A stretch of DNA of 21,272 bases from a virus (IMGVR_UViG_2617270964_000007:1-21272), one strand, 5' to 3'. Positions 1 through 10,156 are shown, counted from the stretch's first letter. A program made the numbers and translations. The notes: a model not told the origin generated them from the sequence alone.

Positions 1-1254
1 ATGCTGGAACAAATGGGCATTGCCGCGAAGCAAGCCTCGTATAAATTAGCGCAACTCTCCAGCCGCGAAAAAAATCGCGTGCTGGAAAAAATCGCCGATG
101 AACTGGAAGCACAAAGCGAAATCATCCTCAACGCTAACGCCCAGGATGTTGCTGACGCGCGAGCCAATGGCCTTAGCGAAGCGATGCTTGACCGTCTGGC
201 ACTGACGCCCGCACGGCTGAAAGGCATTGCCGACGATGTACGCCAGGTGTGTAACCTCGCCGATCCGGTGGGGCAGGTAATCGATGGCGGCGTACTGGAC
301 AGCGGCCTGCGTCTTGAGCGTCGTCGCGTACCGCTGGGGGTTATTGGCGTGATTTATGAAGCGCGCCCGAACGTGACGGTTGATGTCGCTTCGCTGTGCC
401 TGAAAACCGGTAATGCGGTGATCCTGCGTGGTGGCAAAGAAACCTGTCGCACTAACGCGGCAACGGTGGCGGTGATTCAGGACGCCCTGAAATCCTGTGG
501 CTTACCGGCGGGTGCCGTGCAGGCGATTGATAATCCTGACCGTGCGCTGGTCAGTGAAATGCTGCGTATGGATAAATACATCGACATGCTGATCCCGCGT
601 GGTGGCGCTGGTTTGCATAAACTGTGCCGTGAACAGTCGACAATCCCGGTGATCACAGGTGGTATAGGCGTATGCCATATTTACGTTGATGAAAGTGTAG
701 AGATCGCTGAAGCATTAAAAGTGATCGTCAACGCGAAAACTCAGCGTCCGAGCACATGTAATACGGTTGAAACGTTGCTGGTGAATAAAAACATCGCCGA
801 TAGCTTCCTGCCCGCATTAAGCAAACAAATGGCGGAAAGCGGCGTGACATTACACGCAGATGCAGCTGCACTGGCGCAGTTGCAGGCAGGCCCTGCGAAG
901 GTGGTTGCTGTTAAAGCCGAAGAGTATGACGATGAGTTTCTGTCATTAGATTTGAACGTCAAAATCGTCAGCGATCTTGACGATGCCATCGCCCATATTC
1001 GTGAACACGGCACACAACACTCCGATGCGATCCTGACCCGCGATATGCGCAACGCCCAGCGTTTTGTTAACGAAGTGGATTCGTCCGCTGTTTACGTTAA
1101 CGCCTCTACGCGTTTTACCGACGGCGGCCAGTTTGGTCTGGGTGCGGAAGTGGCGGTAAGCACACAAAAACTCCACGCGCGTGGCCCAATGGGGCTGGAA
1201 GCACTGACCACTTACAAGTGGATCGGCATTGGTGATTACACCATTCGTGCGTAA
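1..1254 (+). CDS. proA: Gamma-glutamyl phosphate reductase (glutamate-5-semialdehyde dehydrogenase), complete 417 aa
   Basis: Full-length ORF starting with ATG at position 1. The translation ([16 protein letters not shown]...GDYTIRA) matches enterobacterial ProA as I recall it, including length. Chromosomal gene flanking the prophage. Confidence 0.93.
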
Positions 1255-1368: not shown

Positions 1369-1444
1369 GCCGATATAGCTCAGTTGGTAGAGCAGCGCAT
1401 TCGTAATGCGAAGGTCGTAGGTTCGACTCCTATTATCGGCACCA
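1369..1444 (+). tRNA. thrW: tRNA-Thr, anticodon CGU, 76 nt including encoded CCA
   Basis: GCCGATATAGCTCAGTTGGTAGAGCAGCGCATTCGTAATGCGAAGGTCGTAGGTTCGACTCCTATTATCGGCACCA folds as a cloverleaf: 7-bp acceptor stem GCCGATA/TATCGGC, anticodon loop with CGT, T-arm GGTTCGACTCC. It lies downstream of proA, as thrW does in E. coli, and is a known integration site for P22-type integrases. Confidence 0.9.
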
Positions 1445-2619: not shown

Positions 2620-2843
2620 GCTTTAACCTCCTGCACATCAACCGCATTCACCGCGCTATTGTGTCTCACAGACTTAAGCGCCGCAATGCAGTCTGACTTG
2701 CAAATGCGATATGGGCTTTTAGGTTTATCTGGATTTATCTTTGCGGCCTGAAGTCGTCCACTTCGTATCCACTGCGTGATAGTGCCTTTGTCTACCTTCA
2801 GATACGACGCTGCCTCTTCACGAGTGAAGATTTCTTCTTCCAC
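2496..2843 (-). CDS. xis: Excisionase / AlpA-like HTH DNA-binding protein; GTG start, 3' end overlaps int by about 124 nt
   Basis: Directly upstream of int on the same strand. The N-terminus (FTREEAASYLKVDKGTITQWIRSGRL) looks like an excisionase-type winged helix. GTG at 2843 is preceded by GGAGAT. The overlap with int is typical of lambdoid xis-int. Confidence 0.6.
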   Translation of the reverse strand: MEEEIFTREEAASYLKVDKGTITQWIRSGRLQAAKINPDKPKSPYRICKSDCIAALKSVRHNSAVNAVDVQEVKACQSNYAVARGTAISSRQMDQELDALLKHRTKGKRKNFTIV

Positions 2844-2933
2844 CTGGAATCTCCATTTATTGGATTGGTATTATTGCGGTAGGTCTGGATATCATTGAGC
2901 AATGAACAGGCCTCATCGAGTATGAGGCTGTGG

Positions 2934-3278
2934 TTAGTCCTTGCGTAACTCGCTAATTCTTCTGTAAGTCTCTGGTGCTTTGTTTCCGTGTATCTTCATT
3001 TCAGACTTCAACAGATCAACGAGGGAATCCCATTCGTTGAGGATTCCTTTGAATGCCGGAACGCGCTTTGCAACCTTGTCGAATGAATCTCTGATTTCTG
3101 GAATCTGCTCAACAAGTGCAACGCATAGTCGGAAATCTGCTGCGTCATGTGGAGCGCCGAAGTGATGACCATAGATATTCTTTTTCAGTCCACATGCGAT
3201 TGAGGCAAGAGTTGCGCTACTGATGCCGACATCGCCAGTCGATTGCCATTTCAAAACCTTCATAGCCAAATCTGACAT
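2934..3278 (-). CDS. Hypothetical protein, 114 aa, int-proximal accessory gene
   Basis: ATG at 3278 with GGAG 7 nt upstream. I recognise no family. It sits in the xis-proximal accessory region of the leftward early operon. Confidence 0.5.
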   Translation of the reverse strand: MSDLAMKVLKWQSTGDVGISSATLASIACGLKKNIYGHHFGAPHDAADFRLCVALVEQIPEIRDSFDKVAKRVPAFKGILNEWDSLVDLLKSEMKIHGNKAPETYRRISELRKD

Positions 3279-3358
3279 TTCTTGTCTCCATAAAACAAAC
3301 CCCGCCGTAGCGAGTTCAGATAAAAGAAATCCATCAATTGGTTAGGGTTTTTGTAATT

Positions 3359-3550
3359 CTATGAATTATGTTGTTTTTTAGCTTCAGCTTTCCATTCATC
3401 AAAGGCAGTGTCTTTGTTCATGGTGCTGATATTGATCTTACGGTCAATATCATATACACGCCACTCACCGTTAGGCCTCTCTTCGCATCTAACTAAGTAT
3501 GAATTGCCATTAATATCTATGCGTCTGTCTATTTGCATGAACATTTTCAA
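3359..3550 (-). CDS. Hypothetical small protein, about 61-63 aa (TTG at 3550 or ATG at 3544)
   Basis: ORF with AGAGGA 8-9 nt upstream of the TTG. Local sequence is visibly AT-rich. No family recognised. Confidence 0.4.
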   Translation of the reverse strand: MKMFMQIDRRIDINGNSYLVRCEERPNGEWRVYDIDRKINISTMNKDTAFDEWKAEAKKQHNS

Positions 3551-3664
3551 TTTTCGAATCCTCTTTAATATGCATTTTTTTTTGCTATTTCAGTAGTTTA
3601 CTATTGATGAGGCGTTATTATACACACTTCATTAATGCAAGCATCTTTATGCTATGCTACTAAT

Positions 3665-3946
3665 TTAGCAATTGATATTCACCTTTATCGCGTATACCTT
3701 TACCGGTTTATCACCGAAGTGGGGGTGTGTGATTGTTTTCACTTCATATCCTCCATACGGAACATCAATTCTGCGACTGGAGTCGTCGCGCTTCGGATAT
3801 CCCTTTGTGATAATCAGGCGGTCATACTCCCGGAACATAATTCGCTTATTCCAATAGTCATTACACAGGCGATACTCTTCCGTTTTCTCTCCTCGAATCA
3901 TGGCATCGAAGTATTCACCTTTGACGGCAAGTTGTAGGTTAGCCAC
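3665..3946 (-). CDS. Small PUA/ASCH-like domain protein (tentative), 93 aa, GTG start
   Basis: GTG at 3946 preceded by AGGAGG at optimal spacing. The N-terminus LQLAVKGEYFDAMIRGEKTEEYR resembles the beta-barrel opening of ASCH/PUA-like domains. The fold assignment is a guess from sequence pattern. Confidence 0.45.
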   Translation of the reverse strand: MANLQLAVKGEYFDAMIRGEKTEEYRLCNDYWNKRIMFREYDRLIITKGYPKRDDSSRRIDVPYGGYEVKTITHPHFGDKPVKVYAIKVNINC

Positions 3947-4673
3947 GGTTAACCTCCTGCGGCGGTTCTGGCAGCGGCATCCAGTGGGTTACGTCATCCA
4001 AGATATTTCCTGATAAATATGTGAAAGCTCTATATTTTTTGTAATCAATTGGACTCATTACCCAGTTCCAATATGCTGCCACTATTTGACCTTGACTAAA
4101 TGCCAGTAACATTTTGGTGTCGTCCGGCATTCGCTCACTACAGCTTATCCAACCATCCGGAGTTACCGGAGAGTTGCCATTTACATCGAAGTTTGGCTCT
4201 GCGTCCTGAATCAGGAGGATGTAGCCATTCTTGGCAGTATCAAGTTCTAACGCCTCGGTGACGGTGCCGAAATAGCGATTACCTAAATCAGCATCACAAG
4301 TACTTACATCAATGGAAACTTCCATGCCTTCGATTAATTCTGGCAAGTTGTAAGCTTGGCTTACAGGTTCGGCTTCCAGTTCTGCAATGCGCTTTTTTGC
4401 TGTTTCCAGCTCGCCCAGCAGCGCCAAGACGGTAGCCGGATTGGCTGCAGCGATGAATTCAGCATTGGCCTGCTGTTCCATTTGGAAATCTTCATCGAAA
4501 CCGCTTTCTGGATGCGCTCCTTCAATTCTGCAAATGGGAAGATATCCAACAACTTCACGATGAATTAGTGCATCACCAGCATCAAATCTCTCCTCTCCAT
4601 ATTCGAGCGACCACACACCACACGTTGCTTTCTCTGCCGCCTCACGCAGTGCCTGATAGTCAATCTTGCTCAC
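3939..4673 (-). CDS. Ead/Ea22-like protein with C-terminal DUF551-like domain; probable GTG start at 4673 (track ORF extends to 4694)
   Basis: AAAGGAGG lies 6 nt upstream of the GTG at 4673, giving [16 protein letters not shown]..., as Ead/Ea22-family proteins begin in my recollection. The C-terminal segment [11 protein letters not shown]...[10 protein letters not shown] resembles DUF551. Confidence 0.6.
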
Positions 4674-4837
4674 TGTTTGCCTCCTTTGCGCCACATCGCA
4701 TTCAGATATTTGTTTTGATTCACTGATGGAAAAGAATTTCTCTTAAGCAATTCCTCTCTCGATGGCATTGGCTTTACGCGTTGGCGAATAATCATTTCTG
4801 CCGGAAGAATGCCGGGATTGTATGCAAGTCCTCTCAT
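4670..4837 (-). CDS. Small basic hypothetical protein, 55 aa
   Basis: ATG at 4837 with AGAGGAA upstream. Its stop overlaps the start of the downstream Ea22-like gene (GTGA), suggesting translational coupling. Below the 60-aa ORF-track threshold. Confidence 0.3.
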
Positions 4838-5179: not shown

Positions 5180-5662
5180 TTATTTGATAAGAAGTGAAGG
5201 TTTCCCAACTTTGAGTTGAGCGCCGGGGATATTTATTCCTGCTTTTAGTTGGTGTTTGATTGCCAGTTTGTCGGCTTTAATTGTCGTTTCAAACTCAACG
5301 TATTCAGGAGGAAGGGCGCTTGAGTCGATTATTTCTACAATTTCTGACGGTTTGCGGATTGTTACCTGGTGAATACCTGCTCGAATATTTTTCTTGCCAA
5401 CCATTTCAAGCGATGACGCTATATATGATTTGATGCTGTCAATCTTATTTTGAATTACTGCGGCTCGCTCATTTAGTGACTTTGCCTCTTCCTTGAGGCG
5501 TTCAGCATAACCATATTCATTTTTAATAATGGCAAGAAGTTGCTCTATTTTATCGGTAAATTCTCCTTCCATGCCTTCTATTGTGTCAGCAATCATCTCT
5601 GGCTCTAAATCTGAATCCATCAGCTTTGCATATTCATTGGCTATTTCATACAGTTTGCTCAC
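5180..5662 (-). CDS. Siphovirus Gp157-family protein (recombination-module accessory), about 160 aa, probable GTG start
   Basis: Coiled-coil-rich sequence immediately downstream of recT. AGAGGT lies 5 nt upstream of the GTG at 5662. Gp157-family proteins commonly accompany RecT/Sak recombinases. Confidence 0.55.
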   Translation of the reverse strand: MSKLYEIANEYAKLMDSDLEPEMIADTIEGMEGEFTDKIEQLLAIIKNEYGYAERLKEEAKSLNERAAVIQNKIDSIKSYIASSLEMVGKKNIRAGIHQVTIRKPSEIVEIIDSSALPPEYVEFETTIKADKLAIKHQLKAGINIPGAQLKVGKPSLLIK

Positions 5663-6548
5663 TGGCAACCTCTAGTTTCGCTTTGCATTCTATGTAAATG
5701 GCTTGTACGTTCTGCTGCAATTTCATTCCAGATGTCAGGCGATATGCTTCTGCAAAATATCGCTTCAAATCATCCATGTTTTCTGCCTGAGCCATTTCAT
5801 CACAAAGAAGTTGTGCTTTTTCCATAATTTCCTGCTGGTGTTTCCGTTCATCTTCGCGGATATCTTCCTCTGATTTGTGCGGCATAACTGGTTCCTGATG
5901 CATACCTTCATCTTCGTTAAGCAGGTGAATGGCATTATCCAGTCGCTGGGCTTTAGGCCAGTATTTGCTGGCGCGTTTAACTATTGTTTTACGCGCCATC
6001 TCTTCCCAGAATGTTTTCCACGGTCCATTCTTTGCCTTGCTCGTTGCTTCCACTGCTTTAATTTCTGCCAGACTCATTTCTTCAGTCAGGTAGTCACCAT
6101 CTGCTGTTTTTACCGTGCAATAACCACCAACAATAGAGCCTCGCTCTCCAAATGCGTTGTATTTGTGAGTTGGTGCTGAATCAAGGCCGTTTGATTCATA
6201 GGTGTCGTTTGAGTACACCAGTTTGCATTGCCCCCACTTAATTGATCCTGTCGATTGCGCAAGATGAAGTAATCCCATGTAACTGATATCAAGGCACACC
6301 ATGCCGTCGCGAGGAACCAGATAAGCTAGTTTGCTGGCCGGGTTTAAGGTGATGCCGATCGCCGCAACATTGATGATGGCGTTCTGTGCGCTGGTTGGAT
6401 TTGCCAGTGCTGTTTTAGCCAGGTAATCGTTTTTCTGGAAATACTGAATTGCAAACTGGCTTTCCTTAGCCCATGTCACCGTCTGTTCAGTCAATGCTCC
6501 GCAGAATAACTGCTCTTGCTGTTTAACGAATTCAACGATATTGCTCAT
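5646..6548 (-). CDS. recT: RecT-family single-strand annealing recombinase, 300 aa
   Basis: ATG at 6548 with GGAGAAG upstream. The translation has the RecT/Red-beta core as I recognise it (…PRDGMVCLDISYMGLLHLA…FGERGSIVGGYC…). It sits in the recombination position of the leftward early operon. Confidence 0.8.
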   Translation of the reverse strand: MSNIVEFVKQQEQLFCGALTEQTVTWAKESQFAIQYFQKNDYLAKTALANPTSAQNAIINVAAIGITLNPASKLAYLVPRDGMVCLDISYMGLLHLAQSTGSIKWGQCKLVYSNDTYESNGLDSAPTHKYNAFGERGSIVGGYCTVKTADGDYLTEEMSLAEIKAVEATSKAKNGPWKTFWEEMARKTIVKRASKYWPKAQRLDNAIHLLNEDEGMHQEPVMPHKSEEDIREDERKHQQEIMEKAQLLCDEMAQAENMDDLKRYFAEAYRLTSGMKLQQNVQAIYIECKAKLEVASEQTV

Positions 6549-8447: not shown

Positions 8448-8720
8448 TTACCTCGCCGTCAGTTGTTTTGATTTCCGGTAGCCTGCCGCGTAAATGGCTA
8501 CGTTTGGCAGGCAAATACTTCCGCTGCATTCATCTGCCTTCTTGCAGCGAAGGCTTCCGAGTGATGCTGCTTTATCTGCTCTGACGCAACCAGAGAGCTT
8601 TAGCGCAATCTTTCGCGCCAGTCGCTGTTCTTGCATTGCCTGTTCACGTTGAGCCTGTCTGCGTGCTCTGCGGCGATTTCTGGCGTTATCGTCAGCCAGA
8701 TATGTAATGACTACTGTCAT
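8448..8720 (-). CDS. N: N-like transcription antitermination protein with arginine-rich motif, 90 aa
   Basis: ATG at 8720 with GGAGGT upstream; the track ORF extends further 5' into the leader. It contains the arginine-rich motif NARNRRRARRQAQREQ near the N-terminus, and the ends (MTVVITY… / …YAAGYRKSKQLTAR) resemble P22 gp24 as I recall it. It is the first gene downstream of pL and nutL. Confidence 0.65.
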   Translation of the reverse strand: MTVVITYLADDNARNRRRARRQAQREQAMQEQRLARKIALKLSGCVRADKAASLGSLRCKKADECSGSICLPNVAIYAAGYRKSKQLTAR

Positions 8721-9031
8721 GTTGACCTCCGATGAAACAACTTTGGAATTGATAGTGATTGCAAAGTGGTTTCTGGCCCCTCGAACTGAGGGGCAGAAAG
8801 AGCATCTCGCCACCTAATAGGTCAATGCTCGGATCGAGAGATTTAATTAACCTCGGTTTTGAAGTTATGCATTCACATAAATCCTCCTGTTGCATGTGCA
8901 GCATTGGCTGTGTTTGGCGGCTGCATTTCGCCTATGGAATTGACTTTGGCGGTGACGCGCCGGGTGCTTATCTTCCGGTTGCCGTCGTGCAGCTGCACTT
9001 CACGTCACCCCAAAGCCAACTACTCTTTGGT

Positions 9032-9215: not shown

Positions 9216-9240
9216 AAAAAAAAAGGGGCGAATGCCCCCT
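9216..9240 (-). terminator. Rho-independent terminator at the 3' end of the repressor gene
   Basis: On the minus strand the hairpin GGGGGCATTCGCCCC overlaps the cI stop and is followed by 9 U (A-run 9216-9224 on the plus strand). It would insulate pL from repressor-gene transcription. Confidence 0.6.
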
Positions 9241-9890
9241 TATGGAAGGTTTGCTAGTTTTGCATCGACAACTACGCCGATGATTTTGCAGTTTCCGTTG
9301 ATCTCGATCATCGGATATTGTGGGTTAAGTGGTTTTAGAAACTTCCTGCCTGCATCAATAACTAACTTCTTGAAAGTTGCCTCGTTTTCTCCTTCGAGCT
9401 TTGCAACTACCAGTTTCCCGTTACGCGGCTCTACTTCAGGATCGACGAGTATTATCATTCCTTCAGGGATACTGAGACCGGCCGGAGCCGTCATTGAGTC
9501 TCCCTTCACGTCCAACCAAAACGAATCTTCTGAACAGTCTACGGTTGTATCGTACCAGTTATCTATTGCACGCTTATGATATGGTTCTACAGCTTCCATC
9601 CAGCATCCTGCGCTCACCCAGCTAATCAGAGGGTATGACCCTCTTGGATCATGCCTACTGTGATAGGCAATGTTTGAAAGACTTTCCTCTCCTTTCATCA
9701 GATAGTCAGGGGAACACTTCAACGCATTAGCCAGGGCGAGAAGATTCTCTCCATTTGGCTCTGTCTCAGAGCGTTCCCACTGAGATATGGCAACATTAGA
9801 CACGCCGACCATCTTTCCAAGTGCGGCCTGCCTGATCTTGAGTTCTTTTCTCCGAGCGCGAATGCGCTCTCCCATCAATTGAGTTTTCAT
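9240..9890 (-). CDS. c2: Phage repressor, P22 C2-type (HTH_XRE N-terminal domain plus LexA-like S24 autopeptidase domain), 216 aa
   Basis: HTH segment LKIRQAALGKMVGVSNVAISQWERSE. The C-terminal domain has the S24 catalytic motif GDSM and a downstream Lys (…VVAKLEG…). The whole protein closely resembles P22 C2 as I recall it. It is divergent from cro across operator sites. Confidence 0.9.
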   Translation of the reverse strand: MKTQLMGERIRARRKELKIRQAALGKMVGVSNVAISQWERSETEPNGENLLALANALKCSPDYLMKGEESLSNIAYHSRHDPRGSYPLISWVSAGCWMEAVEPYHKRAIDNWYDTTVDCSEDSFWLDVKGDSMTAPAGLSIPEGMIILVDPEVEPRNGKLVVAKLEGENEATFKKLVIDAGRKFLKPLNPQYPMIEINGNCKIIGVVVDAKLANLP

Positions 9891-9970: not shown

Positions 9971-10156
9971 ATGTACAAGAAAGATGTTATCGACCACTTC
10001 GGAACCCAGCGTGCTGTAGCTAAAGCGTTAGGCATTAGCGACGCAGCAGTCTCTCAGTGGAAGGAAGTCATCCCAGAGAAAGACGCCTATCGACTGGAAG
10101 TCGTTACAGCTGGCGCCCTGAAGTATCAAGAAAGCGCTTACCGCAAAGCGGCATAA
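9971..10156 (+). CDS. cro: Cro repressor, P22 Cro-like, 61 aa
   Basis: First rightward gene after oR. HTH segment TQRAVAKALGISDAAVSQW. The length and sequence resemble P22 Cro as I recall it. Confidence 0.85.
   Translation: MYKKDVIDHFGTQRAVAKALGISDAAVSQWKEVIPEKDAYRLEVVTAGALKYQESAYRKAA

Follow-up and report, generated by a model that had tools for sequence, protein, structure and literature searches.

Two hypothetical genes next to xis in a thrW-integrated lambdoid prophage are probably accessory genes of the early leftward operon

In phage lambda, the decision between lysis and lysogeny is modulated collectively by the genes that separate the recombination genes from xis (PMC8614690, PMC3824215). 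These exo-xis genes (orf55, ea8.5, ea22, orf61, orf63, and orf60a) are small, non-essential ORFs of the early pL operon, and they occupy the same niche as the two genes described here. A closer counterpart has been on record beside xis of phages 434 and HK022 since 1989-1990. "ORF114" was annotated in phage 434 in 1990 (M60848, AAA67902.1), with a counterpart in HK022 (X51962/AF069308). The order annotated in M60848 is xis, t'I, ORF114, ORF55, and tL4, and tL4 is annotated in the same place in X51962.

The stretch of DNA analyzed here (21,272 nt in full, hereafter the window) contains a lambdoid prophage integrated at thrW, and two ORFs at 2934-3278 and 3359-3550, on the strand of xis and int, lie at the distal end of its leftward early (pL) operon (Table 1). 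Both were present in the ORF list as the original prediction had described them. The predicted length of 114 aa was exact for the first (hereafter, ORF114), and that of about 62 aa for the second (hereafter, ORF63) corresponds to 63 or 61 aa depending on the start codon. All genes from N through int are encoded on the minus strand, in the order N-like, anti-restriction, RecT, Mu-Gam-like, Ea22/DUF551, ASCH, ORF63, tL4, ORF114, xis, and int; the anti-restriction gene (minus strand) and cII were identified in addition to the features listed. The longest int ORF, starting at 2619, shares 124 nt (2496-2619) with the 3' end of xis, and RefSeq calls the equivalent int of E. coli 13C1065T (L053) with a similar overlap.

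Table 1 Features of the window around ORF114 and ORF63 (nt positions counted from the first letter of the window).
Feature	Position	Strand	Details	Source
proA	1-1254		window start	
tRNA-Thr(CGT), thrW	1369-1444			
Tyrosine integrase, int	1459-2619	minus	adjoins thrW	ORF list
Excisionase, xis	2496-2843	minus	HTH_17, phrog_2907; downstream of ORF114	
7-bp hairpin	2910-2928	minus	right past the ORF114 stop codon; no T-run	terminator scan
ORF114	2934-3278	minus	114 aa, ATG start; equivalent of phage 434/HK022 ORF114 (phrog_1229)	
ORF114 ribosome-binding site	3285-3289	minus	GGAGA, 6 nt before ATG	read from sequence
tL4-type intrinsic terminator	3291-3314	minus	5-bp GC-rich stem, then GTTTGTTTTA	terminator scan
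ORF63 cassette	3335-3664	minus	330 nt, 33.6% GC; insertion relative to HK022 between the ASCH gene and tL4	
ORF63	3359-3550	minus	phrog_16329; 63 aa from TTG, 61 aa from first ATG	
ORF63 ribosome-binding site	3559-3564	minus	AGAGGA, 8 nt before TTG	read from sequence
ASCH-domain gene	3665-3946	minus	phrog_625; upstream neighbor of ORF63	also RefSeq annotation
Ea22/DUF551 protein	3939-4694	minus		
Mu-Gam-like gene	5180-5668	minus		
RecT	5646-6548	minus		
N-like antiterminator	8448-8813	minus		
CI-type repressor	9240-9890	minus		
cro	9971-10156	plus		

The statement that the two ORFs match nothing that could be named did not hold. The first corresponds to ORF114 of phages 434 and HK022, and the second belongs to a protein family exemplified by STM14_1438, so both genes are already known as sequences and are catalogued without functional annotation. 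Both were confirmed as real and protein-coding. On balance, they are likely to be translated, non-essential accessory genes of the distal pL operon of this thrW prophage, expressed in the lytic phase. The window shares an Ea22-like gene with the lambda exo-xis region, whereas lambda has no homologue of ORF114 or ORF63, and its orf63 has only the number in common with the ORF63 described here.

The DNA at 2878-3332 is ~96% identical to that of 434, HK022, mEp043, mEp213, and many Stx phages, with matches in 161 phage records. Across the gene itself, the nucleotide identity to 434/HK022 is 95.6-96% and the amino-acid identity 95-97%, and the phrog_1229 HMM matched residues 1-114 (E = 2.8e-50). 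The window gene and those of 434 and HK022 have the same length, ribosome-binding site, downstream hairpin, and slot between tL4 and xis. They differ in that the window protein carries R51L and A88D, and in that ORF55, which lies between tL4 and ORF114 in 434 and HK022, is absent from the window. The hairpin behind the gene is conserved in 434, HK022, and Stx2_16002; homology to the 434/HK022-like module is lost ~30-40 nt beyond it. The xis/int module downstream is P22-type, thrW-specific, and unrelated to that of 434 and HK022. ORF114 DNA was found in 940 of 5,426 complete E. coli genomes (17%, about one in six), with up to four copies each and Shiga-toxin phages included, and every copy is annotated as "hypothetical protein". 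Among 17 close copies (136 pairs) the dN/dS was 0.14, indicating that the coding sequence is under purifying selection. The predicted protein is soluble, of 12.7 kDa and mildly basic (pI 8.6).

With 45.5% GC, ORF114 equals the prophage average (mean 46.6%), so the AT-rich block into which both ORFs had been placed is confined to the ORF63 cassette. The part of that description that stood concerns the spacers (37.5% GC at 3279-3358 and 28.9% at 3551-3664) and the cassette with ORF63 (37% GC), which are AT-rich. The cassette was delimited by alignment with HK022, 434, and Stx2_16002.

The genes at this end of the operon vary from prophage to prophage. In related prophages, this place holds ORF55 with or without ORF114, ORF114 without ORF55, neither of the two, or other genes altogether. 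At the ORF55/ORF114 junction, a repeated linker of a T-run and a ribosome-binding site, TTTTAT(T)GGAGA, precedes both genes. The junction lacking ORF55 (window 3285-3300 compared with 2052-2300 of locus L001) also occurs in L011, L017, L022, L042 (from Shimwellia), and L044, and it follows that the absence of ORF55 is a circulating allele rather than a private deletion. Of 32 related loci, 31 have the ASCH gene directly upstream of ORF63, which may reflect a functional coupling or just recent linkage. In the Salmonella-type group (L029-L036), a dinI gene with a LexA box and DUF1367 stand behind ASCH-ORF63, and tL4, ORF55, and ORF114 are missing. Presence and absence also differ between prophages that are otherwise near-identical, and each gene would be an independently shuffled unit consisting of a hairpin or T-run, a ribosome-binding site, and a small ORF.

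Two neighborhoods were seen beside this pattern. The thrW prophage of E. coli 13C1065T has the same int, xis, and ORF114 as the window, and ORF63 and the ASCH gene are replaced there by genes for an 'Eag protein' and a dATP/dGTP pyrophosphohydrolase and by a remnant of the 3' part of ORF55, which shows that cassettes turn over rapidly among thrW prophages that are nearly identical otherwise. In the Mu-like prophage L046, the ORF114 homologue is followed immediately by DUF3850, which we take to be an ASCH-like domain.

The position of the terminators bears on when the two genes are transcribed. The tL4 of M60848 and X51962 has its homologue at 3291-3314 of the window (fold energy of -11.2 kcal/mol for 3290-3335), directly next to the ORF114 ribosome-binding site, as the window lacks ORF55 between them. 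ORF63 thus has tL4 behind it, and ORF114 has a hairpin without a T-run. In a consensus scan, which is insensitive and thus a weak test, no minus-strand sigma-70 site was found in 3551-3664 or 3279-3358, and the sole sigma-70-like site on this strand (3394-3365) is inside ORF63 and upstream of tL4. A TTGCAT...TATAAT pair upstream of ORF63 was rejected as a promoter, as its spacer is only 12 nt and the -10 element is altered in one clade. Given that no own promoter was found and that ORF114 lies behind tL4, we infer a dependence on antiterminated pL transcription. Both ORFs would then be made mainly by N-antiterminated read-through from pL, that is, upon infection or induction and not in the quiescent lysogen, a timing deduced from the gene order and from the terminators annotated in 434 and HK022.

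This timing is to be weighed against the reading of the two genes as lysogenic-conversion or defense cargo (morons), expressed from the prophage and protecting the host from other phages or changing its phenotype. A variable region proximal to att with presence/absence polymorphism would suit such cargo, as would the ORF63 cassette with its atypically low GC, its terminator, and its insertion relative to HK022, and also the ORF114 homologue of Mannheimia phage 1152AP2, which is bracketed by annotated terminators. We nevertheless consider this unlikely, since neither ORF has a predicted coding-strand promoter upstream, ORF114 is of average GC, and family members in virulent 9NA-like phages and in Mu-like early operons point to a role in the lytic cycle (PMC4153490). 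No PADLOC-DB 2.0 family matched ORF114, ORF63, the ASCH protein, or three fused homologues at E<=1. The proposal of att-proximal accessory cargo was borne out as far as variable accessory genes are concerned, and a defense role found no support in the PADLOC models.

To describe the spread of ORF114, its profile was searched against 1.84 billion cluster representatives (clustered at 50% identity), of which 2,769 matched at E<=1e-3 and 587 at E<=1e-10; a word-indexed search retrieved enterobacterial relatives only. By tblastn, family members were found in 275 phage records, all annotated as hypothetical, from phages of Vibrio, Salmonella, Yersinia, Klebsiella, Mannheimia, Pseudomonas, and Arthrobacter. 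The members are about 110 residues long and occur in lambdoid, Mu-like, Vibrio, Arthrobacter, and virulent 9NA-like phages. PHROGs 1229, 15291, 4212, and 8038 match the superfamily, including its fused and distant members, and none of them is functionally annotated; membership in such families gives ORF114, like ORF63, a name and not a mechanism. The gene matched no Pfam, NCBIfam, or PADLOC model.

The genomic contexts of the homologues are diverse. In P22-like Salmonella phages the gene is immediately upstream of xis, in Mannheimia phage 1152AP2 (31% identity) directly upstream of xis-int, and in two metagenomic prophages near the integrase. In Mu-like prophages it is between Kil/DUF3164/GemA and Mor, in another lambdoid phage it is in the nin region, past P/DnaB and ahead of Rha/NinG, and in an Arthrobacter phage it is placed behind an HNH gene. 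Sashavirus Sergei, which is 9NA-like (PMC8273493), has it in an early cluster behind an exonuclease gene, and it is also found in the 9NA-like phage FSL SP-062; phage 9NA has been described as virulent, without lysogeny genes (PMC4153490). Its presence in Mu-like, nin, and virulent-phage contexts indicates a gene that is accessory in phage early operons generally, rather than a companion of int/xis or thrW, and nothing was seen to tie it to the thrW-integrated prophages across which the original prediction had proposed a conservation survey. No recurrent partner gene emerged from the GenBank phage records and the homologue-encoding contigs surveyed. The search for related loci returned nothing from one distant family query, and close alignment gave three genomes only.

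The same contexts speak to the idea that ORF114 is a DNA-binding accessory of excision or integration, or another transcription regulator, acting via its helix-turn-helix-like G-I-S-S-A-T-L-A segment. The position immediately upstream of xis in E. coli, P22-like Salmonella phages, and the Mannheimia phage, the int-proximal position in the two metagenomic prophages, the mildly basic protein, and the W-x3-G-x2-G-[IV]-S-S-x-T motif, which is superficially like a helix-turn-helix, are all compatible with it. Given that the homologues in Mu-like prophages, the nin region, and virulent Sergei have no int or xis nearby, and that the helix-turn-helix models of Pfam and NCBIfam gave no match, we regard this as very unlikely.

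Longer family members were inspected for fused domains. Only 1 of 39 had a Pfam partner, a CCA-adding tRNA nucleotidyltransferase. This fusion is a hint, and no proof, of a link between the family and RNA or nucleotides. In this 558-aa metagenomic protein (P0170), NF008137 matched residues 19-362 (E = 8e-99) and the ORF114-family domain is C-terminal, at 451-537. The remaining longer members have Ea22-like, zinc-ribbon-like, or unknown extensions or a tandem duplication, and PHROG scans of the extensions returned only families of unannotated function. A MazG-like N-terminus, suspected for P0110, was not supported on checking.

Apparent fusions of E. coli ORF114 to dATP/dGTP pyrophosphohydrolase, Erf, Kil, or a methyltransferase were set aside, as they look like recombinant or mis-called chimeras. 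Chimeric ORFs with ORF114 parts were seen in the Stx phages PA28, P27, phi315, and phiSTEC801 (H78-H81) and in P0015, P0051, and P0063. In one type, a DNA methyltransferase gene is attached to the first 56-79 ORF114 codons, and in the other, the N-terminus of dATP/dGTP pyrophosphohydrolase is joined to ORF114 at shared 'GIS' codons. These chimeras are footprints of recombination at short homologies in the ORF114 region. A partial Salmonella homologue (P0070) was discarded from a divergence test, as it has a mosaic junction at the contig end and was uninformative.

The alignment of 55 diverse members was used to identify conserved residues. S20, P43, D45, D48, C52, and W83 are invariant, and W11, G18, S21, G30, R51, L55, and P60 nearly so. 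Most of these residues are located at the N-termini of predicted helices, and they may be structural helix caps rather than a catalytic site. The invariant residues together with R51 could alternatively line a pocket for catalysis or a ligand instead of providing a surface for protein contacts.

The His-rich segment GHHFGAPHD, which had been considered a potential metal site, is present at residues 37-45. However, its histidines are not conserved across the family, and a His-based metal site was rejected. H38 and H39 are in a mostly gapped, variable loop, with a gap at position 38 in 43 of the 55 members and His at position 39 in six. At position 44, 14 of the 55 members have His and the others Y, L, R, W, or S, and close homologues read YGSGFGAPHD, YGSRFDAPHD, or YGGRFDAPSD at this segment.

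The window copy deviates from the family at one conserved position. Codon 51 (3126-3128, minus strand) is changed from CGA to CTA, giving R51L, a change private to this copy; position 51 is Arg in 54 of the 55 diverse members and in 16/16 close copies. The other family-wide residues (W11, G18, S20, S21, P43, D45, D48, C52, and W83) are retained. The nearest copy, that of E. coli 13C1065T in the same proA-thrW-int-xis setting, differs by the R51L nucleotide alone, and the exact window protein (WP_032234303.1) is recorded on one contig. Because R51L hits a near-invariant Arg, the window copy, though clearly a family member, may be functionally impaired, judging by conservation.

The remote homology search and structure prediction that the original prediction had proposed thus delivered 2,769 family representatives for ORF114 and confident AlphaFold2 models of both ORFs. 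The ORF114 model has seven helices (pLDDT 93, pTM 0.86). A structure comparison against BFVD returned uncharacterized phage proteins only, and a profile search of the PDB gave no match. In the literature, nothing was found on ORF114 of 434, on STM14_1438, or on anti-defense in HK022.

Most characterized genes of such early accessory regions act by binding host or phage components, and Gam, Kil, CIII, and Ral are neighboring-type early genes of this kind. By analogy with these genes, and given the spread of the family to virulent and transposable phages and the soluble, helical nature of the protein, our best guess is a lytic role. ORF114 would most likely be a cytoplasmic protein that, in lytic development, binds some component of the host or phage that is broadly conserved, and it would act neither via int/xis nor via a His metal site. 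A small enzymatic or ligand-binding role is possible as well. It is conceivable, though doubtful, that the family represents a new fold with an undescribed, broadly useful early function. For example, a universally conserved host component or small molecule could be bound or modified via S20, P43-x-D45-x-x-D48, R51-C52, and W83. If so, the ORF114 family would be a new class of host-takeover or counter-defense protein. For the two ORFs together, host-modulating proteins of the lytic cycle are most likely.

The wider interest of these genes is modest and comes from the size, spread, and structural novelty of the ORF114 family, ORF63 being rarer. ORF114 represents one of the larger unnamed phage protein families, with a confident model and no counterpart among solved structures, and its occurrence in the early regions of temperate and virulent phages makes it a reasonable target for work on host takeover or counter-defense, for which HK022, 434, and the mEp phages are genetically tractable. 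For the window itself little changes, as it holds two catalogued hypothetical genes of ordinary phage dark matter.

The phrog_16329 profile matched ORF63 across 63/63 positions (E = 8.5e-49). Copies of the cassette, 97.6-99.4% identical, were detected in 30 of 5,426 complete E. coli genomes; the cassette also occurs in 29 IMG/VR loci and, among deposited phages, in the Stx2a phage Stx2_16002 only. The exact protein is encoded on 449 contigs of E. coli, Salmonella, and Shigella, and STM14_1438, a two-residue variant, is on at least 1,000 Salmonella contigs. RefSeq PGAP calls no gene over ORF63 in 30/30 complete E. coli genomes, leaving a gap of ~380 nt, and the gene is called in GenBank records of Salmonella and E. 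coli and in PHROGs. ORF63 is thus probably a small gene with a TTG start that has been systematically missed. Its reading frame is intact in 33/33 copies. Across these copies, it has six variable sites in 189 nt, compared with 16 substitution sites in the 114 nt upstream, and is thus ~4 times less variable than its 5' flank. Three of the changes are synonymous and three conservative (I>V, N>D, and I>V), with a dN/dS of 0.24, although such tests are weak given the very low sequence diversity and the seven protein clusters known.

The PGAP silence, the TTG start, and the low diversity would lend themselves to the notion of a fortuitous ORF in a cassette without coding function, which would serve as an RNA or as a linker in regulation or recombination. 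This notion is highly improbable in view of the intact and less variable frame, the ribosome-binding site, the GenBank annotation, the separate PHROG family, and a model of good confidence from five sequences. An RNA element in the AT-rich cassette was also rejected, as Rfam covariance models gave nothing at E<=1 across 2700-4000. The defense-cargo, excision-cofactor, and non-coding readings are each less well supported than that of accessory genes of the early operon.

Neither ORF matched a structural or housekeeping family, homology that had been named as an observation that would speak against the original prediction, and no regulatory family matched them either. ORF63 also has no sequence similarity to ORF55 of lambda or 434. 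The AlphaFold2 model of the 7.6-kDa protein has four beta-strands and a C-terminal helix (pLDDT 85.6, from a five-sequence alignment). Weak fold resemblances were found to MmoD (6d7k_H), TriX (8s2m_A), and the N-terminal domain of HicB (6g1c_V), at 8-13% identity, in a list that also holds dsRNA-binding domains and unrelated enzymes; no toxin partner gene adjoins ORF63. On the basis of these modeled resemblances, ORF63 is probably a small binding or inhibitor protein.

Right past the stop codon of the ASCH gene, at 3625-3664 on the minus strand, is an imperfect inverted repeat, GCATAGCAT-AAAG-ATGCTTGC (~-10 kcal/mol), which has no T-run and is located at the 5' edge of the ORF63 cassette.
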